Shown here in pieces: positions 4,948 through 46,624 of a stretch of DNA of 48,836 bases. Position 1 is the stretch's first letter, and each line of letters starts with the position of its first letter. The stretch is from sequence record NC_005833.1. One strand, 5' to 3'. The DNA comes from Escherichia phage T1. The position numbers were made by a program, and so were the translations under genes. The notes below the pieces were generated by a model. That model did no database searches. It had not been told where the DNA came from and saw nothing but the letters and a program-made list of their open reading frames with translations.

Positions 4948-5478
4948 ATGGATAAAATCACAATTTGGGGCCAGACAATCAACCTGTTTCTCGGCACGCG
5001 CCGAGTGGCAATCTTTGACTTTGACGGGACACTTAGCGATGGATCTGGTCGACTTCACCTGCTGCCAACAAAGGATTTGCACTTGACTGAAAGCTGGTCT
5101 GAGTTTAACCGAGCGGCAATATTTGATAACCCAATCCAGAGCACGATCGATGTGATGAACTCTATGTTTGCCGCTGGGTATCATGTGATCATTTTAACCG
5201 GGCGAAGTGATGAGGTGCGTTACGCATCTGAGTTATGGCTTAAGCATCACGGCGCTCGATATGATTACTTAGTCATGCGACCGCATACCGACAACCGCAA
5301 AGACACGGTAATGAAAGAAGAGGCAGTGCGCGCTATCGGCATTGATAACATTCTTGCGGCTTGGGATGACTCAGTGAATATAATAAAAAAATTCAGAGAT
5401 CTAGGGATAACCACATATCAGGTTTGTGAATATGCCTGTGATAGTCGAGAGGATTTAAATAGTCATGGTGTCGATTGA
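4948..5478 (+). CDS. HAD-superfamily phosphatase (nucleotidase or polynucleotide 3'-phosphatase-like)
   Basis: HAD motif I FDFDGTL, motif II ILTGR, downstream K and WDDS; RBS GAGGAA. Confidence 0.6.
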   Translation: MDKITIWGQTINLFLGTRRVAIFDFDGTLSDGSGRLHLLPTKDLHLTESWSEFNRAAIFDNPIQSTIDVMNSMFAAGYHVIILTGRSDEVRYASELWLKHHGARYDYLVMRPHTDNRKDTVMKEEAVRAIGIDNILAAWDDSVNIIKKFRDLGITTYQVCEYACDSREDLNSHGVD

Positions 5479-5959
5479 TAACAAATCAATGGTAAGAGAG
5501 TTATTTACTTATTCTGACGGCGTTCTGTATTGGAAGGCCAAATCATCTAAATACAGTAGAGCTAAAATAGGAGGCGCGGCAGGAAGCAAGGATAAAGACG
5601 GATACATAATAATCAGAGTAAGAAACGAAACTAGAGGCGCTCACAGGCTTGTATGGATATACCATAATGGCAAGATACCTGATGGAATGGAGGTAGACCA
5701 TATGGATGGAGACATAACAAACAATAGAATAGAAAACCTAAGATTGGTAACGAGAACCATAAATAACAGGAATCAAAAAAAGAGATCTGATAACACAACC
5801 GGAGTATCCGGTGTAACTTTCATGAAAGATAGAGGAAAGTATAGGGCGCAAGTTAGAAACAAGAGACTCGGGCAGTTCGACACAATAGAAGAGGCCGCCA
5901 AAGCAGTAAAGGATGAGCGGGATAGATTAGGTTTATTCACAAAAAGACACGGGGTGTAA
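5465..5959 (+). CDS. HNH homing endonuclease with AP2-like DNA-binding domain
   Basis: YHNGKIPDGMEVDHMDGDITNNRIENL HNH core plus TGVSGV..KYRAQV AP2-like segment; AGA/ATA-rich codon usage unlike neighbours. Confidence 0.75.
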   Translation: MVSIDNKSMVRELFTYSDGVLYWKAKSSKYSRAKIGGAAGSKDKDGYIIIRVRNETRGAHRLVWIYHNGKIPDGMEVDHMDGDITNNRIENLRLVTRTINNRNQKKRSDNTTGVSGVTFMKDRGKYRAQVRNKRLGQFDTIEEAAKAVKDERDRLGLFTKRHGV

Positions 5960-5961
5960 AC

Positions 5962-6534
5962 ATGAAAACAGCTATCATTTTAAACGGCGCACCTGGTGCG
6001 GGAAAGGACACTATCGGATGCATCCTGGCTGACACTTACGATCATGTAGCGCTACGCAGCTTCAAAGCGCCAATGTTTGAGATTGCCCGAGCAATCCTGG
6101 GTGAGACTAATTTCGAGTATTTCATGTTCTTGTATGAGGACCGTCGCTATAAAGAAGAGCCAGCGTCAATCCTGAACGGTAAAAGCCCGCGCCAGTTTAT
6201 GATCTGGATTAGCGAGGAGGTCATCAAGCCGCAGTTCGGAAATCGCTTCTTCGGTATGCGAGCGGAAAGTAAGGTGAAAGAGTCGCATTCACTTTCGGTA
6301 TTTACTGACGGTGGATTCAAAGACGAGATCTTGCAGATGATTGAAGGTGACATCCAGGTCAAGCTGTGTCGAATCCATCGCAACGGTTGCAACTTTGACA
6401 ACGACAGTCGCGACTATATCTATCTTGACGATATGATCGGGGTCAACGGTTATCAGGAGTGTGACTTCTTTTCTGTCGAAGGCCATCCAGAAATTACCGC
6501 TCAGCACATAGCCGCCACGTTCATCAATAAATAG
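5962..6534 (+). CDS. P-loop nucleotide/polynucleotide kinase
   Basis: Walker A GAPGAGKDT near N-terminus (GKDT as in dNMP kinases); about 190 aa. Confidence 0.6.
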   Translation: MKTAIILNGAPGAGKDTIGCILADTYDHVALRSFKAPMFEIARAILGETNFEYFMFLYEDRRYKEEPASILNGKSPRQFMIWISEEVIKPQFGNRFFGMRAESKVKESHSLSVFTDGGFKDEILQMIEGDIQVKLCRIHRNGCNFDNDSRDYIYLDDMIGVNGYQECDFFSVEGHPEITAQHIAATFINK

Positions 6535-7916: not shown

Positions 7917-8082
7917 ATTAATTATTCGAAAGATGGGAATGTTTTGCCAGTCGTGCAAGCAATCTTTCGAAGCTGAATTATCAGCAACCAGTCAGGATGA
8001 AGCCATCACGAAAGCAAAAAAACTTTCCGGCGCTAACCTTGACACTCACAAAATAAATATTGAATTAATCAAGGAGATTTAA
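7897..8082 (+). CDS. small hypothetical protein with CxxC pair
   Basis: Track ORF; true start may be an internal Met (MGMFCQSC). Confidence 0.3.
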   Translation: MKRFKVKLIIRKMGMFCQSCKQSFEAELSATSQDEAITKAKKLSGANLDTHKINIELIKEI

Positions 8083-8083
8083 C

Positions 8084-8311
8084 ATGACAATTTTTTTATT
8101 AATTATCGCTGGTGTCATTATTTTTGGTGCTGGTTTGTTTGCTGGCTTCGCACTTGTGGCGGCAGCAATTGCGATGGACGCGAAGGATAAAACTGGTGTA
8201 TGGCTGACCTACTCACCTAAGAAGGACCAATGGGAAATGACTGGCGACCTTGCTCACTGCTATTCTAAAGCTAAGACCCACCCTAAAGGCATTAAACGAC
8301 GATTGTCGTGA
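8084..8311 (+). CDS. small membrane protein (N-terminal TM helix)
   Basis: Track ORF; IFLLIIAGVIIFGAGLFAGFALVAAAIA hydrophobic stretch; followed by terminator 8322-8342. Confidence 0.45.
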   Translation: MTIFLLIIAGVIIFGAGLFAGFALVAAAIAMDAKDKTGVWLTYSPKKDQWEMTGDLAHCYSKAKTHPKGIKRRLS

Positions 8312-8321
8312 TGAACACTAA

Positions 8322-8395: not shown

Positions 8396-8920
8396 ATGAG
8401 TGAACCTAAGAACGCTCCCGTAGTCCAGGGTGGTAATTTCAAAGAGCTATACAAGAAAAAGTTTGGCACTGTACTCGCGAAAAACCGGGCTATGACGCCA
8501 GAGCAACTATTCGATCTGTCAGTGAAGTATTTCGAATGGGCCGAGGACAATGCGATCAAGGCGTCAGAATCAGCCAGCTTTCAGGGTGGCGTTTATGAGT
8601 CGCTTGTCCATAAGCCGCGCGTCTTCACCTGGACCGGATACCGACTATTCATCGGTGCAAGCGAGGCTGCAATCATTAAGTGGAAGCGAGAGGAAGAATA
8701 CAGCGAGGTTATGGAGTTTGTGGAATCGGTAATCAACGAGCAAAAATTCCAGCTTGCCGCCAACGGTGTTATTAATGCCTCCTTTATCGGTAAGGATCTC
8801 GGAATCGATAAGCCAGCCTCAATCAATATCGAAAACTCGTCAGCTTCCGCATCGACAGTAGTCGCCACTACTGAGGATGCGATGAAAGAGGCGGTAAACA
8901 GCATTCTTGATATGCTTTAA
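8396..8920 (+). CDS. terminase small subunit (positional inference)
   Basis: Track ORF 8372..8920; start refined to ATG 8396 after AAGAGGA; immediately upstream of terminase large subunit. Confidence 0.5.
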   Translation: MSEPKNAPVVQGGNFKELYKKKFGTVLAKNRAMTPEQLFDLSVKYFEWAEDNAIKASESASFQGGVYESLVHKPRVFTWTGYRLFIGASEAAIIKWKREEEYSEVMEFVESVINEQKFQLAANGVINASFIGKDLGIDKPASINIENSSASASTVVATTEDAMKEAVNSILDML

Positions 8921-39023: not shown

Positions 39024-39737
39024 ATGAAAGACTTTAATGATATCGAAACTATCGACTTTGCAGAAACTGGTTGCTCATTCACTCGCGAAGCAATAGCATC
39101 AGGCGGTTATTATCAGGCATTGAAAACGCCAACCTGTAAAGAGATTTCAGGGCGTCGATACAAGGGGACAAATACCCCTGACGCTGTTCGTGATTTATGG
39201 TCAACTCCGCGAGAGGTTATTGCATACCTTGAGGGTCGTTATGGGAAATATGATCTCGACGCTGCGGCAAGCGAAGAAAATAAAGTTTGCGAGAAGTTTT
39301 ACTCTCAGGAAACAAACTGCTTAAAACGTTGGTGGGGAAAGAATAAGCACGTTTGGTTAAATCCTCCTTATAGCCGACCTGATATATTTGTCAAGAAGGC
39401 CATTGAGCAAATGGAGCACAACAATCAGATCGATATGCTTTTACCTGCAGATAACTCTACTGCGTGGTTTACTGAAGCGCGGCAGAACGCAGCTGAAATA
39501 ATCTGGATTGAAGCGGACTTGACTGAGGATATTGACGGCAATGAATACGCACGATCCGGTCGCCTGGCTTTCATATCCGGTGAAACTGGAAAGGCCGTAG
39601 ACGGTAATAACAAAGGTTCGGTAATTTTTATTATGCGCGAACTTAAAGAAGGTGAGGTGCAACAGACTCACTACATCCCAATCACAAGCATTTGCCCTTC
39701 GGTGAAAAACAAACGAGCAAAGGTGAGGAAAGTATGA
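39024..39737 (+). CDS. dam: DNA N6-adenine methyltransferase (Dam-type)
   Basis: NPPY catalytic motif (WLNPPYS); size and context typical of phage Dam. Confidence 0.75.
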   Translation: MKDFNDIETIDFAETGCSFTREAIASGGYYQALKTPTCKEISGRRYKGTNTPDAVRDLWSTPREVIAYLEGRYGKYDLDAAASEENKVCEKFYSQETNCLKRWWGKNKHVWLNPPYSRPDIFVKKAIEQMEHNNQIDMLLPADNSTAWFTEARQNAAEIIWIEADLTEDIDGNEYARSGRLAFISGETGKAVDGNNKGSVIFIMRELKEGEVQQTHYIPITSICPSVKNKRAKVRKV

Positions 39738-39985: not shown

Positions 39986-40030
39986 TTGCTAAAACTACCC
40001 GGCGAAAGTCGGGTATAGTTATTTCATAGA
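39975..40030 (+). promoter_or_regulatory. conserved box-hairpin element (variant ACAGCAC)
   Basis: TTGCTA 39986-39991; 22-nt spacer; TATAGT 40014-40019; CCCGGCGAAAGTCGGG inverted repeat. Confidence 0.55.
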
Positions 40031-40051
40031 AACGAAATGAGGAATCAGAAG

Positions 40052-40261
40052 ATGGCACGCATTAACGCAAACTTTTTCAATATCGCTCAGCAGTCCGCAA
40101 AAATGGCTGTTCATATTACGAACAAGCAAGGCGGCAACTTCGATTGGGATATTGCTATGAACTTCCTTAAAATGTCTTATTACCGTTGCTCAGTTGAAGA
40201 AGTCGAAGGCTTCATCTCTGACGTGGAGAAATTAACTAATGCTGATAAAAAAGCAAGGTAA
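40052..40261 (+). CDS. hypothetical protein (about 69 aa)
   Basis: Track ORF 40037..40261; start refined to ATG 40052 after GAGGAA; preceded by box-hairpin element. Confidence 0.4.
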   Translation: MARINANFFNIAQQSAKMAVHITNKQGGNFDWDIAMNFLKMSYYRCSVEEVEGFISDVEKLTNADKKAR

Positions 40262-40511
40262 GCGCGAAGTGTGGGAGCACGCAAAGGAATGCGGCATCTC
40301 AGACGATATAGCATTAATTGCTAAATACTTTGATATAAAGGATGTTAGCATTATATCAAACGGCAAGATTTCATTTATGGAAGGTATGCCGAGAAAAATG
40401 CAAAGAGTTCCAGCCACTCCATCACTTGAGTTTTACCGCGAAGAGGGAAAGAGAATTGAGCGAGAAAGAAAATCCACAAAAAACGGCAAGTCTTCCCGGC
40501 TTAAATATTAA
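40239..40511 (+). CDS. hypothetical protein (90 aa)
   Basis: Track ORF; overlaps next ORF in another frame. Confidence 0.3.
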   Translation: MLIKKQGKREVWEHAKECGISDDIALIAKYFDIKDVSIISNGKISFMEGMPRKMQRVPATPSLEFYREEGKRIERERKSTKNGKSSRLKY

Positions 40512-40743
40512 TGCGGACGAATACCAGGCAATATGGATCGGGAAAAAGCAGGTTAAGCAAATCCCTTTCTCTGACTGGTTGCCACCTGACTTTGTTAATG
40601 TGCTTTGCACTATCGGTATTGAGCAGGAGTTGCATATAGGTTACTACTCACCTGGCCGAAACAGTATGATGCTTGAGGTTGACGGAAAGCTCGTTGAGTT
40701 TAAATCTTCAGATCTAGGATTCTGGTTAAAGGCTGTGGCATGA
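40342..40743 (+). CDS. hypothetical protein; start uncertain (possible TTG at 40456 after AAGAGGGA)
   Basis: Track ORF overlapping 40239..40511 by about 170 nt; no in-frame ATG near end of upstream ORF. Confidence 0.3.
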   Translation: MLALYQTARFHLWKVCREKCKEFQPLHHLSFTAKRERELSEKENPQKTASLPGLNINADEYQAIWIGKKQVKQIPFSDWLPPDFVNVLCTIGIEQELHIGYYSPGRNSMMLEVDGKLVEFKSSDLGFWLKAVA

Positions 40744-40821
40744 AACTTTATTTTGCTGTAGTATTAACACCGCTAATTTCATTTTCAGTAATGTATTTCA
40801 TTATCATGTAAGGATTAAAAT

Positions 40822-41955
40822 ATGTCACAAGCTAAAATCACTACCGAGCAACTTATCGAAGAGCGCATGAGCGGCCTGACACTTCGCGAGATCGCGGAAA
40901 AGTACGGTATGCACATTCGCACTGTCGAGGCGCGTCACGCAAAACTTGCAAAAGAAGGCCACTTCCACGGCAACGAGCATGTTGCTAAGATGGTTCCGGA
41001 AGGCTTCATGGTAAAAGGCACGTCAACCATGATTGACGCGGAAGGTAACGAGAAGATTCGTTGGGTTAAGACATCAGTTGATAATGAGCGCCTTGAGGTT
41101 CTAATGGAAAAAGCGCGTGAAGCATTCTGTTCAGAGTTGCCTAAGGCTATTCCATCTGAATCACCTGACGTTAGTTTTGATGAAGACACGCTTGCGATGT
41201 ATCCAGTTTTTGATTTGCACATTGGTGCTCTTGCTCACAAACATGAGTGCGGCGAAAACTACGACACAGCGACAGCAGAGAAGGTTATGAATGGGTTCTT
41301 TGACTACGCTGTAGATAAGGCGCCAAACTCAAAGAATGCCGTATTGGTATTGGGTGGCGATTTCCTACATTACGACTCTTTGGAGTCTAAGACTCCAGCG
41401 TCAGGCCATTACTTAGATTCTGACAGTCGTTACGCTAAGCTTGTTTATGTCGCAATCCGATCAGTACGACGCGCAGTCTCTCGAATGCTGGAGAAGCACC
41501 AAGTTATTGATATTAAAGCAATAAGTGGGAATCACGACGAATCAGGGATGGTTTGGTTGCGCGCTGCGCTTGCTGCATTTTATGAAGATGAGCCGCGCGT
41601 AAATGTTGATGTTAGCCCTGCCGCAATGATGATGACCAGCTTTGGTAAGACCCTTATTGGATACACTCACGGGCATCAAATGCGAAAAGCAGATACTCGA
41701 CTAAGTGTTATGGCAACTGATTTTCGTAAGTTGTTTGGTCAAAGTGATTACGTTTACACGCATAGCGGTCACTGGCACAGTCAAAAGATTACAGAAACAA
41801 ACTTGGGTATTGATGAGGTTCATGGTCAGCTTGGAAGTCCTGACGCATACTCTGCCAATGGCGGTTGGAGGTCTCAGCGTCAAGCTGCTGTGATTGTCTA
41901 TCACAAGGAATTTGGTGAGGTTGGACGATTCATTTGTCGACCTGAAATGTTCTAA
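40822..41955 (+). CDS. HTH domain fused to calcineurin-like metallophosphoesterase
   Basis: N-terminal HTH-like LTLREIAEKYGMHIRTV; C-terminal GGDFLHYD and ISGNHDE metallophosphatase motifs. Confidence 0.6.
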   Translation: MSQAKITTEQLIEERMSGLTLREIAEKYGMHIRTVEARHAKLAKEGHFHGNEHVAKMVPEGFMVKGTSTMIDAEGNEKIRWVKTSVDNERLEVLMEKAREAFCSELPKAIPSESPDVSFDEDTLAMYPVFDLHIGALAHKHECGENYDTATAEKVMNGFFDYAVDKAPNSKNAVLVLGGDFLHYDSLESKTPASGHYLDSDSRYAKLVYVAIRSVRRAVSRMLEKHQVIDIKAISGNHDESGMVWLRAALAAFYEDEPRVNVDVSPAAMMMTSFGKTLIGYTHGHQMRKADTRLSVMATDFRKLFGQSDYVYTHSGHWHSQKITETNLGIDEVHGQLGSPDAYSANGGWRSQRQAAVIVYHKEFGEVGRFICRPEMF

Positions 41956-42010
41956 ATAGCACCTTTTGTTAAAACAGTACCCGCGAAAGCGGGTATTATT
42001 GTTTTATAGA
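41956..42010 (+). promoter_or_regulatory. conserved box-hairpin element upstream of HNH gene
   Basis: ATAGCACCTTTTGTTAAAAC; TTGTTA 41966-41971; 22-nt spacer; TATTAT 41994-41999; CCCGCGAAAGCGGG inverted repeat. Confidence 0.55.
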
Positions 42011-42027
42011 AACAAGAGGAGATTGCA

Positions 42028-42510
42028 ATGAACTGGCACGAGCATTACGAATATAGGGATGGTGTTCTATATCACAAGGTAAAGCCATGCAGAAGGCATG
42101 ATGTAAATATTGGGGATGTTGCTGGAAGGGTTGCCAAAAACGGCTATCACTATGTTGTTCACAAGAACAGGCCGTATAAGAGATCTCGAGTTATATGGGA
42201 GATGTTTAATGGTGAGATACCAGATGGTTTTGTTATAGATCATCTGAATCACAATGCCACCGATGATAGGATCGATAACCTTGAGTGTAAGCCAAGAAGA
42301 GAGAATATGGTTAATGTTAAGTTAAGGATTGATAGCACGACCGGAGTAACTGGCGTATCAAGAAAGAGGGATAACAAGTGGAGGGCGTACATAACAATTA
42401 TGGGTAAGCAGAAGTGCAAGAGCTTTGACACGTTTGAGGAAGCTTGCGCGCAGAGGATTGAATGGTCAGTAACTCATGATTTTCACCCAAATCACGGTGG
42501 AACATACTAA
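42028..42510 (+). CDS. HNH homing endonuclease with AP2-like domain
   Basis: GEIPDGFVIDHLNHNATDDRIDNL HNH core, TGVTGVS..KWRAYI AP2-like segment; AGA/AGG/ATA-rich codons. Confidence 0.75.
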   Translation: MNWHEHYEYRDGVLYHKVKPCRRHDVNIGDVAGRVAKNGYHYVVHKNRPYKRSRVIWEMFNGEIPDGFVIDHLNHNATDDRIDNLECKPRRENMVNVKLRIDSTTGVTGVSRKRDNKWRAYITIMGKQKCKSFDTFEEACAQRIEWSVTHDFHPNHGGTY

Positions 42511-42560
42511 TAGCACCTTTTACCTAACCCGCGCCACAGAAGTGCGGCATAGTAACCACA
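42510..42560 (+). promoter_or_regulatory. diverged box-hairpin element
   Basis: ATAGCACCTTTTACCTAA; 22-nt spacer; CATAGT 42548-42553; CGCGCCACAGAAGTGCGGC region. Confidence 0.45.
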
Positions 42561-42582
42561 TCGAAAACAGAGATGCTATATC

Positions 42583-42759
42583 ATGAAGATAGTCAAGTGC
42601 ATCCGAAATGACTCCAAAACACTTCCATTCCGTGTAAATCAGATCTATAGTGTTGGTTATGATTTCGGTGGGGGATTATTTGAGATTTACGACGGGCGAG
42701 GTTCAGCAATCCAGACTCCTCTGAACGGTCACTACCTGGAATTTATTGAGATAGATTAA
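42583..42759 (+). CDS. small hypothetical protein (58 aa)
   Basis: Manual translation downstream of box element 42510-42560; weak RBS. Confidence 0.3.
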   Translation: MKIVKCIRNDSKTLPFRVNQIYSVGYDFGGGLFEIYDGRGSAIQTPLNGHYLEFIEID

Positions 42760-42877
42760 CAATAGCATTCATCACCTTACAGGCTGGCATGATTTACATG
42801 CTGGCCTTTTTGCGTTGTGTCAAATAAATTTGAAGGTTAAAATCGACTCACTTGTTCAAAAAATATATGGTGAGATT

Positions 42878-43093
42878 ATGAAAGAGTTTTTAACGGCTGC
42901 TACGTCAAGCACTGGCGGTGCTTCGTTGGTAGGGGCGGCGACAGGGCAACTTTATATTGCTGGCGCTACATTCATTTGCTTTCTGCTTTTTGGTGCCTGG
43001 GGAGCGTACTGGAAGTATCGTGATAGCAAGGCAATTCAGGAAGCGTTAAACGATGGCGATCTAAATAAGGCGCTTAAGATCAGGGGGAGATAA
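42878..43093 (+). CDS. holin (pinholin-like, two TMDs)
   Basis: Track ORF 42815..43093; start refined to ATG 42878; Gly/Ala/Ser/Thr-rich TMD1 then TMD2 [21 protein letters not shown]; immediately upstream of endolysin. Confidence 0.6.
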
Positions 43094-44516: not shown

Positions 44517-46085
44517 TTAACCCATCAGTCGAGGATTGATGAAAACAATATCATCAATCCGGCAAGTGTAGTTCATCTCTTCGAGCGTGATCAGCAGGCT
44601 GTCGATTCGCTCAGCTACTTTTTGTTGACCGTTGAACGGCGTAACGTTACGGCACTTTGCAACAATGCTATGAATAGGTGCGCGACCTTTGTTCTTCTTT
44701 GCGATCTCAGTGATAACATCAATCAGCTTACGAGATTCAGCCTCATCACCAGCATACCCGGCGGCGCTGGCAGACGACAGATAGGTTCTGGAAAGCTCAT
44801 TGAAAATCATGATCGCTTCCTGCATTGTTTCAAGGTCAATCTCACGGTTGGAACGGTTCGGTGATTCACCCTCCCAGTTCTTGATTGTGTGAAGAACTGA
44901 AGCAATGCGCAAAGCGTGCTTATCGAACTTGCCGAGATGACCGCGTAGCATTGAGTGAGAGTATTTGCCCCCGGCTGCGAAATCCGGCTCCATAGCCTGG
45001 CGAGCAAGGTTTAATTCACGCATAGCATTACGGCTTACAGAGAGAACAACGTTGTCCTCCTTCATAATGTTGTGCACAAGTCGATAATATTTACTCACCA
45101 ATCCTCGATCGACTTCCTTATACAGTGCATCACCATTTTCATCGCAAAGAATACGAGTGCCTAAAAGAGGTTCCTCGCGAACCAATAGGAAACGCTCAGA
45201 TACACCGATACCGCGCTGGCCTGCGTCCATGATACCCTTGATTGTTTCATCCTGCGCAATGACGCAGATCGAACCGACCGGGCAAAGAGATAAGTTATTG
45301 TCCTGATTTGAACGCGCAACCTCCATATGGTTTTTATCCCACGCCTTGAGGATAAGCTCGCTGTTTGATTTCTTATCAGAACCGCCATAAGTCAGGCCAA
45401 GCAATGTATTTATTGCCGTTGCCTCATCAGAGATTACGGAAAAGTGGCCTTGAACAGCAGCTACTTTCGCAAGACCTTCCGGTGTAGGATCTGATACCGC
45501 GAAAACAATATCAGCCATCTTCTTGATCTTCTCTTCCAGTTTTTCCTTGTCCTCGTACAGCGCCGCCGTCGTGTTACCCTTCGGATCGTTTTTGATTTCC
45601 TTCTCGATCTGACGTAGCTGACTGGTTAAACGGATACGTTCCTTTTTGCGCTCTTCATTCAGTCTCTGAATCTCTGCGCGCATAGGTGTAATCGCCGCTG
45701 AGTTAATCGCGGATTTACCTGTTGATGGTGGCTGGCTAATCACCATATAAAGAGCGGTCGGTTGTTCTTCTCCGTGATATTGCACCCAAAACTTCCCTAG
45801 CATCGCGGCTGAGATGCACCCAATGAAATGAGCGTACGCAGACGAAACAGGAAACTGTACAGACTCAGCTTTTGCTTTTGCATATTCGAATACCAGGTTA
45901 TCGCCACCTAACGAAATCAGCGGGAACTTATCGTTTCCACTGTTGATATCGATCGGGTCTTGCCAAAACGAAACTGAATCCCCGTAGCTGTTTTCACGAA
46001 TTGCGATCGCCACCGGATTAACTCCAGTGCTATTTGCGATCTCAATAATCTGTTGGTAATTCAGTTTTGGCTTAATATTAAACAT
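44517..46085 (-). CDS. P-loop NTPase (possible replication-associated ATPase)
   Basis: Track ORF 44517..46148; start refined to Met 46085 (ATG sharing one base with HNH stop); Walker A-like QPPSTGKS. Confidence 0.55.
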   Translation of the reverse strand: MFNIKPKLNYQQIIEIANSTGVNPVAIAIRENSYGDSVSFWQDPIDINSGNDKFPLISLGGDNLVFEYAKAKAESVQFPVSSAYAHFIGCISAAMLGKFWVQYHGEEQPTALYMVISQPPSTGKSAINSAAITPMRAEIQRLNEERKKERIRLTSQLRQIEKEIKNDPKGNTTAALYEDKEKLEEKIKKMADIVFAVSDPTPEGLAKVAAVQGHFSVISDEATAINTLLGLTYGGSDKKSNSELILKAWDKNHMEVARSNQDNNLSLCPVGSICVIAQDETIKGIMDAGQRGIGVSERFLLVREEPLLGTRILCDENGDALYKEVDRGLVSKYYRLVHNIMKEDNVVLSVSRNAMRELNLARQAMEPDFAAGGKYSHSMLRGHLGKFDKHALRIASVLHTIKNWEGESPNRSNREIDLETMQEAIMIFNELSRTYLSSASAAGYAGDEAESRKLIDVITEIAKKNKGRAPIHSIVAKCRNVTPFNGQQKVAERIDSLLITLEEMNYTCRIDDIVFINPRLMG

Positions 46086-46624
46086 CACAATAAACTCCTT
46101 AGTTGACGGCGTGAATGATACACCGTCAATGGTACACGCGTTTTGCAAAAAGTGCTATTCGATCCGTGATTCTCATGAAAACCGTATAGCCTTTCCGCTT
46201 CCTTCCTTGCTTTAGCCGCTGCATCCAGCGTCATGAAGGTCCCTAAGTGTTTTGTCTTTTTATTTATGGTTATGTTTGCCGTGTATCTATTTGTTTTTTT
46301 ATTCCAATACACTCCCATAACTCCTGTGTTTGATGACACTACTCCCTTGTTTCTTAGGTTGTCTTGCCTAGTTACTAGCCTGAGATTCTCAATTCTGTTA
46401 TCGTCTCTTTCATGGTTTATGTGGTCTACATCCATTCCTTCTGGTATGTTTCCGTAGTGTATTTTCCATACTATTCGATGGGCGTATTCAAATACACCTC
46501 CTGGAAAACATATTGACCGATAACCTTTTTTATTAACAGTTCCGGCAAGTAGATTTCGTCTTCTTCCGATTCTCCACTCTTTCCAGTACAGTCTCCCGCT
46601 AACGTATTTCAGTTCATCTTTCAT
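46085..46624 (-). CDS. HNH homing endonuclease with AP2-like domain
   Basis: GNIPEGMDVDHINHERDDNRIENL core; AGA/ATA-rich codons; last 25 codons read through a box-hairpin element. Confidence 0.75.
   Translation of the reverse strand: MKDELKYVSGRLYWKEWRIGRRRNLLAGTVNKKGYRSICFPGGVFEYAHRIVWKIHYGNIPEGMDVDHINHERDDNRIENLRLVTRQDNLRNKGVVSSNTGVMGVYWNKKTNRYTANITINKKTKHLGTFMTLDAAAKARKEAERLYGFHENHGSNSTFCKTRVPLTVYHSRRQLRSLL
46100..46160 (-). promoter_or_regulatory. conserved box-hairpin element, reverse strand, inside 3' end of HNH ORF
   Basis: Reverse complement reads ATAGCACTTTTTGCAAAA, 22 nt, TATCAT, then RBS and ATG of P-loop NTPase gene. Confidence 0.55.

Follow-up and report, generated by a model that had tools for sequence, protein, structure and literature searches.

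We analyzed the open reading frame (ORF) at positions 40822 to 41955 on the plus strand of Escherichia phage T1 (NC_005833.1; the whole 48,836-nucleotide stretch is called the window). A first-pass annotation, made from the letters alone, had proposed that this ORF encodes a helix-turn-helix (HTH) domain fused to a metallophosphoesterase (MPE). Window bases 40000 to 43000 are 99.9% identical to Tunavirus T1 MN153797 and 98.4% identical to phage JMPW2, and by this sequence comparison the whole window is the coliphage T1 genome. The coding sequence (40822..41955, plus strand; 377 amino acids plus the stop codon) appears in the ORF list and matches phrog_704 with an E value of 7.2e-155, residues 4 to 376 aligning with profile positions 2 to 388 of 390. 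The phrog_704 name, "DNA repair exonuclease," is an annotation label for a predicted function. A Shine-Dalgarno sequence read from the DNA, AAGGA (40810..40814, plus strand), ends 7 nucleotides (nt) before the ATG, and a terminator scan placed a GC-rich, terminator-like hairpin with a GAAA loop and a T-run (41976..41997, plus strand) just 3' of the stop codon. The ORF is a real gene. It is labeled "hypothetical protein; putative phosphoesterase" in the T1 record and "DNA repair exonuclease" in the JMPW2 RefSeq record, and both the gene and its family are already cataloged; the protein has for years carried the label of a putative phosphoesterase and is not a discovery.

The binuclear MPE domain spans residues 120 to 377 (41179..41952, plus strand) and is defined by five motifs. 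The two on which the first-pass annotation had relied, GDxxH and GNHDE, are present as motif II (G179-D-F-L-H183; nt 41356-41370) and motif III (G236-N-H-D-E240; nt 41527-41541), and the other three are present as well: motif I (D131/H133), motif IV (H283-G-H285), and motif V (G316-H-W-H319). A family-specific loop at residues 186 to 203 reads TPxSGHxLDxDxR. The T1 protein carries the motifs for the seven metal ligands of the calcineurin-like MPE superfamily, and its predicted structure has the beta-sandwich MPE fold. Because Pfam Metallophos (PF00149) scored 18.8 bits on the T1 protein, under the gathering score of 21.5, we based the MPE assignment on the motifs and the fold and not on a Pfam call; at an E value of ≤0.01, only 29 of 117 family representatives matched PF00149. 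An NCBIfam scan of the T1 protein gave no match, and a PDB sequence search with this protein alone gave nothing meaningful, the top matches being ArnD (E value of 0.11) and GlgS, both spurious. A PADLOC scan returned only a chance match to Cas6b (E value of 0.049).

The N-terminal HTH domain occupies approximately residues 5 to 46 (40834..40959, plus strand), where AlphaFold predicts three helices (residues 8 to 16, 21 to 27, and 32 to 44) with a predicted local distance difference test (pLDDT) score of ∼92 to 95. In T1 alone, the Pfam matches to this region were below threshold (HTH_24, HTH_23, Sigma70_r4_2, and HTH_28; E values of 0.036 to 0.042). When searched against the PDB, the family profile matched GerE/LuxR-type HTH chains, including VraR (E value of 7e-4), DesR, RhlR, and GerE. 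The best N-terminal Pfam matches in other members (117 representatives scanned) were Sigma70_r4_2 (1.5e-9), GerE (2.4e-8), and HTH_8 (2.6e-7), and HTH_1 matched the N terminus of 25 of them. In unusually long family members, the extra domain is a second HTH, and a scan of these proteins for extra domains found only further HTHs. The AlphaFold helices, the PDB matches of the family profile, and the Pfam matches in other members show that the HTH, which the earlier reading had seen in the first 40 residues, is real and general to the family; at the family level, it appears to be a three-helix domain of the sigma-70 region 4/GerE/Fis type. The HTH is also the part of the protein least conserved in sequence. 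A family-specific beta-hairpin (strands 62 to 71 and 77 to 86) with a helix (residues 88 to 104) was defined by alignment conservation and AlphaFold secondary structure at 40996..41136 on the plus strand.

Nearest folds, conservation, and comparison with known enzymes

We ranked the nearest folds of the T1 protein using an AlphaFold model built from a deep alignment, which superseded a shallow-alignment model (pLDDT of 78) that had ranked MJ0936 first. The PolD DP1 proofreading exonuclease came first with a figure of 15.4, followed by Staphylococcus aureus SbcD and Thermotoga maritima Mre11 (both 14.6), MJ0936 (13.8), LpxH (13.4), and further Mre11 and SbcD chains (12.3 to 13.3). The cyclic nucleoside monophosphate phosphodiesterase Rv0805 scored 12.1, the Pseudomonas putida nuclease MPE scored 9.2 (20% identity), and the protein phosphatase PP5 scored 8.8. 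Nucleases head this ranking by a modest margin. At the sequence level, the similarity of the T1 family to Mre11, SbcD, and DP1 is below significance; the family profile reached T. maritima SbcD/Mre11 in the PDB with a nonsignificant E value of 0.54 that covered motifs I and II only. The BFVD database contains many phage proteins of ∼400 amino acids with the T1-type fold, often carrying the borrowed name "DNA polymerase II small subunit." Among the top 50 BFVD matches, many of them unnamed, T5 A1 (discussed below) was not listed.

The family is very large. Relatives of the gene were found by tblastn in 2,045 of 50,697 phage genomes, most commonly in Escherichia, Klebsiella, Salmonella, Vibrio, Campylobacter, and Flavobacterium phages. 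When 1.84 billion representative proteins were searched exhaustively with phmmer, at least 4,726 clusters (50% identity) were recovered at an E value of ≤1e-3 and 1,027 at an E value of ≤1e-30. Metagenomes enlarge the family by at least 4,700 such clusters. The family is among the commoner uncharacterized enzymes of tailed phages, and it occurs in Drexlerviridae, in Kagunavirus, and in many phages of Klebsiella, Salmonella, Vibrio, and Campylobacter that are in therapeutic use or have been proposed for it. We measured conservation in an alignment of T1 with 150 representatives (151 sequences, 30 to 67% identity). Residues D131, H133, D180, N237, H238, H283, H317, and H319 are retained in 143 to 151 of the 151 sequences, the GNH histidine H238 in 150, and the GDxxH histidine H183 in 148. 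Near-fixed, family-specific residues include H183, T191, D199, D201, and R203, together with G66, S68, G75, W81, and K83 of the hairpin, each of the latter at least 90% conserved (alignment A5). Almost all of the 150 representatives have 55 to 75 residues before the conserved hairpin, and their C-terminal extensions past the MPE core are only 0 to 22 residues. Strong purifying selection acts across the family on a complete active site, and we present as new that this family is a distinct, divergent MPE clade without a Pfam family of its own.

The likeness to Mre11/SbcD includes the GD-x-x-H form of motif II. However, the T1 protein lacks the C-terminal capping domain of those enzymes, its last MPE strands lying at residues 365 to 372 and the chain ending at residue 377, and no Rad50/SbcC SMC-like ATPase gene was found in the T1 neighborhood, in 61 diverse loci carrying the family (described below), or in the annotated contexts that we examined. 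Relative to DP1, the OB fold is replaced by the N-terminal HTH and the hairpin-helix module. In the structural models, then, the family appears closest to Mre11/SbcD/DP1, yet it is without a Rad50 partner and has an HTH, and we regard this combination as a second new point.

The P. putida MPE (PDB 6NVO), an Mn2+-dependent single-strand DNA endonuclease, likewise stands alone, lacking both a Rad50 partner and a capping domain. DNA cleavage by this enzyme requires H81, the D+3 residue of its D78...H81 motif, and the GNH histidine H113, whereas hydrolysis of bis-p-nitrophenyl phosphate requires neither (PMC7826289). Their counterparts in the T1 family are H183 and H238, an equivalence assigned by motif position and not by superposition. 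Unlike the T1 protein, the P. putida enzyme is ∼200 amino acids long, has no HTH, and is encoded in a bacterial Lhr-MPE-Exo-ligase repair operon.

A second comparison is with phage T5. T5 A1, a predicted metallophosphatase, is both required for host DNA degradation and sufficient to cause it. It has been likened to nucleases of double-strand-break repair and of polymerase proofreading, and it works with A2, a DNA-binding protein (bioRxiv 10.64898/2026.04.02.716235). The structural neighbors described for A1 match those that we found for the T1 protein, and both systems pair an MPE-type enzyme with a DNA-binding module. Linkage to a deoxynucleoside monophosphate (dNMP) phosphatase of phrog_415 is also common to the two: T5 Dmp is encoded in the A1 operon, and a Dmp-like gene lies beside the HTH-MPE gene in phages KLPN1 and K1G. 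In contrast, A1 is 556 amino acids long, its DNA-binding partner is a separate protein, and A1 is also required for second-step DNA transfer, a step absent from T1. Homology of the T1 protein to A1 or A2 was not detectable in sequence comparison, and the parallel is therefore an analogy only; the resemblance would be one of design, each system combining an MPE nuclease with DNA-binding and dNMP-handling components. Motifs IV and V and the C terminus of A1 and the T1 protein seem similar on visual inspection, a likeness to which we give no weight.

The small Cluster A MPE gp48 of mycobacteriophage A10ZJ24 has phosphodiesterase activity and attacks the genomic DNA of its host early in infection, causing damage (PMC12287305). 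Its motif I sits at residue 10, so that, unlike the T1 protein, it has no N-terminal HTH/hairpin module. Among the MPE-superfamily proteins of other phages is lambda NinI, a protein phosphatase encoded at the end of the nin region, just before the late and lysis genes. This slot is similar to that of the HTH-MPE gene in a Pseudomonas aeruginosa lambdoid prophage. The PPP signatures of NinI (the GDxHG, GDxVDRG, and GNHE set) are not matched by the T1 protein, and PPP folds are among its weakest structural matches.

Gene neighborhoods in T1, its relatives, and the wider family

Reading rightward in T1, genes for the helicase, the VRR-NUC nuclease, and the Dam methylase are followed by four small ORFs and then by the HTH-MPE gene and the terminator-like hairpin. 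Next come an HNH homing endonuclease gene, a 58-amino-acid ORF, and the holin, endolysin, and spanin genes. This order agrees with the first-pass description of the setting as a replication and modification gene cluster. The T1 genome also encodes RecE, Erf, and SSB. Tlsvirus phSE-2 has the T1 gene order minus the HNH gene. In Webervirus KLPN1 (66% identity), two genes lie between the HTH-MPE gene and the holin gene: a HAD phosphatase gene (annotated "polynucleotide kinase"), which directly follows the HTH-MPE gene, and then a dNMP kinase gene. In Kagunavirus K1G (45% identity), which belongs to a different subfamily, the HTH-MPE, HAD phosphatase, and dNMP kinase genes are consecutive, and the first two overlap. 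This linkage of the family to T5-Dmp-like and dNMP kinase genes in some lineages is another new point.

T1 has its own copies of these two genes far from the HTH-MPE gene. One encodes a HAD phosphatase (4948..5478, plus strand; HAD_PNKP E value of 6.9e-17; phrog_415 E value of 1.2e-63), and the other encodes a P-loop protein of phrog_139, the dNMP kinase (5962..6534, plus strand; phrog_139 E value of 1.1e-46); from these matches and the synteny, both may be functional partners of the HTH-MPE protein. The product of 4948-5478 has a HAD phosphatase domain only (DxDGT motif; Pfam HAD_PNKP), without a kinase domain, and T5 Dmp, a dNMP 5'-phosphatase defined by experiment, matches the same phrog_415 family at 3.6e-57. 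Since only a HAD phosphatase domain is present and phrog_415 is shared with T5 Dmp, the public name of this gene ("polynucleotide kinase" or "3'-phosphatase, 5'-polynucleotide kinase") is probably wrong. We had considered a role for the HTH-MPE protein in RNA or DNA end healing with a polynucleotide kinase. This idea was dropped, as the "kinase" neighbor is the phrog_415 HAD phosphatase and the P-loop neighbor is a dNMP kinase, and we therefore adopted a nucleotide-turnover reading instead.

For the wider family, we scanned IMG/VR with a degenerate DNA pattern for GDFLHxD...T...DxDxR, which yielded 120 loci, 112 of them with a family member; neighbor counts use the 61 loci left after removal of those with >70% identity. 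No neighbor conserved at the BLASTP level was found in the 61 loci, the largest neighbor cluster holding 7 of 410 proteins. A HAD phosphatase gene was adjacent in 1 of the 61 loci and a dNMP kinase gene was within the locus in 4, and we rejected the MPE-HAD-kinase trio as a universal operon on these counts. A PHROG scan of the 130 genes within two positions of the HTH-MPE gene identified endonuclease VII (6 + 2), several endolysin families, holin (3), HNH endonucleases, dNMP kinase (3), NinB/Orf (3), NinG/Rap (2), dNMP phosphatase (2 + 2), and nucleoside 2-deoxyribosyltransferase (2).

Individual loci show the same range of contexts. In the P. aeruginosa lambdoid prophage, the HTH-MPE gene follows a repressor gene, replication genes, NinB, and a RusA-like resolvase gene, and it is followed by an unknown 190-amino-acid gene and by holin, endolysin, Rz, and terminase genes. 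The gene comes after SSB in Vibrio phages and after DNA ligase in Campylobacter phages, and in a Xanthobacteraceae prophage a dNMP kinase gene is 2 kb away. In general, the gene closes a DNA-metabolism block, or "nin-like" region, and it often adjoins lysis or packaging genes. Two side observations concern these prophages. A small phrog_474 protein (labeled "phosphofructokinase," which is implausible) is encoded directly upstream of the HTH-MPE gene in the P. aeruginosa prophage (locus L130, 7723-8001); phrog_474 accounts for 2 of the 130 neighbor proteins, from two IMG/VR loci, and may be a recurrent partner. In the Xanthobacteraceae prophage (locus L131, 8593-9309), a second, ordinary MPE of 238 amino acids with a clear Pfam Metallophos match is encoded ∼360 bp downstream, followed by DUF1937 and the dNMP kinase gene, so that two different MPE enzymes occur in one module.

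Candidate functions of the HTH-MPE protein

On balance, we think that the product of the HTH-MPE gene is probably a two-metal (probably Mn2+) phosphodiesterase that is tethered to DNA and cleaves it. We propose this substrate, this metal, and the role in infection discussed below from the observed architecture, intact active site, nearest folds, and gene neighborhoods. The first-pass annotation had left three alternatives: a nuclease, a protein phosphatase acting on host regulators, and a cyclic-nucleotide phosphodiesterase that degrades defense signals. The DP1, SbcD, and Mre11 folds, the retention of H183, the conserved HTH, and the DNA- and dNMP-related neighbors favor the nuclease and leave the other two less likely. 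The family-wide HTH, the complete MPE site, and the rightward unit in T1 with helicase, VRR-NUC nuclease, and Dam methylase genes are further support. In the mechanism that we envisage, the N-terminal HTH on flexible linkers would hold the enzyme on DNA while the C-terminal MPE domain hydrolyzes the DNA backbone. The seven metal ligands would activate a bridging water, H238 would serve as the general acid, and H183 would contact or orient the substrate, as in Mre11 and the P. putida MPE. Unlike Mre11/SbcD, the T1 protein would work without a capping domain and without a Rad50/SbcC ATPase.

We suggest only tentatively, although as the likeliest of the roles considered, that this activity serves the breakdown of DNA, probably the host chromosome, to nucleotides in early or middle infection. 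Three considerations favor bulk degradation and nucleotide turnover. In two lineages the gene clusters with those for a Dmp-like phosphatase and a dNMP kinase, T5 provides a precedent, and T1 itself degrades host DNA. A10ZJ24 gp48 is a second precedent for a phage MPE that attacks host DNA. The HTH-MPE protein might then be a single-polypeptide counterpart of the T5 pair A1 (MPE-type DNase) and A2 (DNA-binding protein), and the degradation product might feed, or be balanced by, the Dmp-like dNMP phosphatase and the dNMP kinase.

Several results weigh against the nuclease proposal and the role that we attach to it. The linkage to nucleotide-handling genes is restricted to particular lineages, and junction resolvase and lysis genes are the commoner neighbors family-wide. 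T5 A1 and the T1 family gave an hhalign probability of 11.5% over 23 columns covering motif III only and an hmmsearch score of 2.6 bits, and A1 matched only phrog_1745, which is separate from phrog_704. Members of the family exist in temperate prophages, the P. aeruginosa lambdoid prophage being one example, and they argue against host DNA destruction because bulk degradation is not expected there. The 2004 T1 genome paper reportedly credited host DNA degradation to three endonucleases. Our literature search on host DNA degradation by T1 found no T1 paper, and searches for a phosphoesterase, metallophosphoesterase, or DNA repair exonuclease of T1 or Drexlerviridae returned genome reports only, with no functional study of any member of the family.

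A somewhat doubtful alternative is that the protein is a DNA nuclease but not a bulk degrader, and that it processes intermediates of recombination or replication, namely, ends, hairpins, flaps, or stalled forks, acting as an accessory "nin-region" function beside the phage RecE/Erf/SSB proteins and junction resolvases. The nearest folds fit this idea, SbcD/Mre11 and DP1 being end-processing and proofreading nucleases, and T1 encodes RecE, Erf, and SSB. The family-wide context of resolvases (endonuclease VII), NinB/Orf, NinG/Rap, and HNH genes, which head the annotated neighbors in the 61 loci, the position after NinB and the RusA-like resolvase gene in the P. aeruginosa prophage, the position after SSB or DNA ligase in Vibrio and Campylobacter phages, and the occurrence in temperate prophages all favor processing. 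However, no recombination gene is consistently adjacent, as the small size of the largest BLASTP neighbor cluster shows, no Rad50/SbcC-like partner was present in the contexts examined, and the tight, partly overlapping dNMP phosphatase/dNMP kinase cluster in two lineages points instead to nucleotide turnover. A different idea is that the protein resembles BirA or NadR in coupling an enzyme to a transcription factor, with the HTH on specific phage or host operators and the MPE domain sensing or removing a nucleotide-type ligand, for example, to time the expression of adjacent lysis or late genes. The HTH resembles those of transcription-factor families (sigma-70 region 4, GerE/LuxR, LysR, and Fis), the gene is often immediately upstream of holin and endolysin genes, in the lambdoid prophage it takes the slot of lambda NinI and Q directly ahead of the late operon, and the T1 gene is bracketed by near-identical terminator-like hairpins. 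We nevertheless consider such a regulator improbable: conservation is lowest in the HTH whereas the catalytic center is nearly invariant, nothing ties MPE domains to ligand sensing, the gene is not beside late genes in, for example, K1G, and no repeated operator-like motif came up, although none was looked for. The transcription-factor-type HTH, the frequent prelysis position, and the flanking hairpins are also why we keep a combined version, in which a bifunctional DNA-bound enzyme and regulator sits at specific sites through its HTH and its phosphoesterase, acting on DNA ends or a nucleotide signal, gates the switch to late or lysis genes, filling the lambda NinI and Q slot in T1-like and many other siphophages; we regard it as quite improbable.

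The remaining two candidates would not act on DNA. Phages do encode signal-degrading enzymes, and the T1 protein could in principle be a phosphodiesterase that destroys the cyclic nucleotide or oligonucleotide immune signals of CBASS, Pycsar, type III CRISPR, or Thoeris systems or another nucleotide second messenger. We find this very improbable, since folds of that kind (e.g., Rv0805) rank under the nucleases, PADLOC gave no meaningful match, a conserved DNA-binding domain has no obvious use in a soluble-signal hydrolase, and no recurring antidefense context was seen in the neighborhoods; to our knowledge, the characterized anti-signaling enzymes use other folds. A protein Ser/Thr/Tyr phosphatase acting on host regulators would have lambda NinI as its model, itself an MPE protein from a similar slot at the end of the nin region. 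It is the least probable candidate, because the PPP signatures GDxHG and GDxVDRG are absent and T1 has DLHIG and GDFLHYD in their place.

A DNA-tethered nuclease of this type would represent no new kind of system, and specialists would not find it surprising. If the T1 protein is a self-contained, HTH-guided, Mre11-like nuclease, phages would have obtained SbcD-type chemistry without a Rad50 partner, and the assignment could name the enzyme behind the classical host DNA breakdown and nucleotide reuse of T1. T1 mutants defective in host DNA degradation transduce well, and the nuclease reading would for that reason also offer a handle on transduction risk. It would, in addition, replace the guesswork labels "DNA repair exonuclease," "oxidoreductase," "winged HTH protein," and "DNA polymerase II small subunit."

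Other features of the T1 region

The plus strand has two GC-rich hairpins of nearly identical sequence (TACCCG[G]CGAAAG[T]CGGGTA), at 39996-40015 and 41978-41995, each with a GAAA loop and a following T-rich run. They bracket the small-ORF block together with the HTH-MPE gene, and the pattern occurs twice against an expectation of zero in shuffled sequences. The pair may be terminators or RNA-stabilizing 3' hairpins that define a transcription unit.

T1 has three paralogous HNH homing endonuclease genes, at 42028-42510 (plus strand), 5465-5959 (plus strand), and ∼46085-46612 (minus strand); the third is 46071-46598 in MN153797, and window coordinates are 14 higher. The gene at 42028-42510 lies between the HTH-MPE gene and the holin gene, at the position of the HAD phosphatase and dNMP kinase genes in KLPN1, and it is missing from most T1 relatives (query coverage of only 50 to 51%, in two pieces). 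The gene at 5465-5959 splits the T1 HAD phosphatase gene from the dNMP kinase gene, two genes that abut or overlap in K1G and KLPN1.

ORF calls just upstream of the HTH-MPE gene (40239-40743, plus strand) differ among records, with 40225-40497 and 40586-40729 in MN153797 (record coordinates) and one longer ORF in JMPW2. Two ORFs of the window, 40239-40511 and 40342-40743, share sequence in different reading frames and match PHROGs 2817, 4596, and 38834, which are of unassigned function. T1 encodes its Dam-type adenine methyltransferase in a single ORF of 237 amino acids (39024-39737). The JMPW2 RefSeq record divides the gene into 8025-8321 and 8412-8738, a split suggestive of a frameshift or sequencing error in that record.

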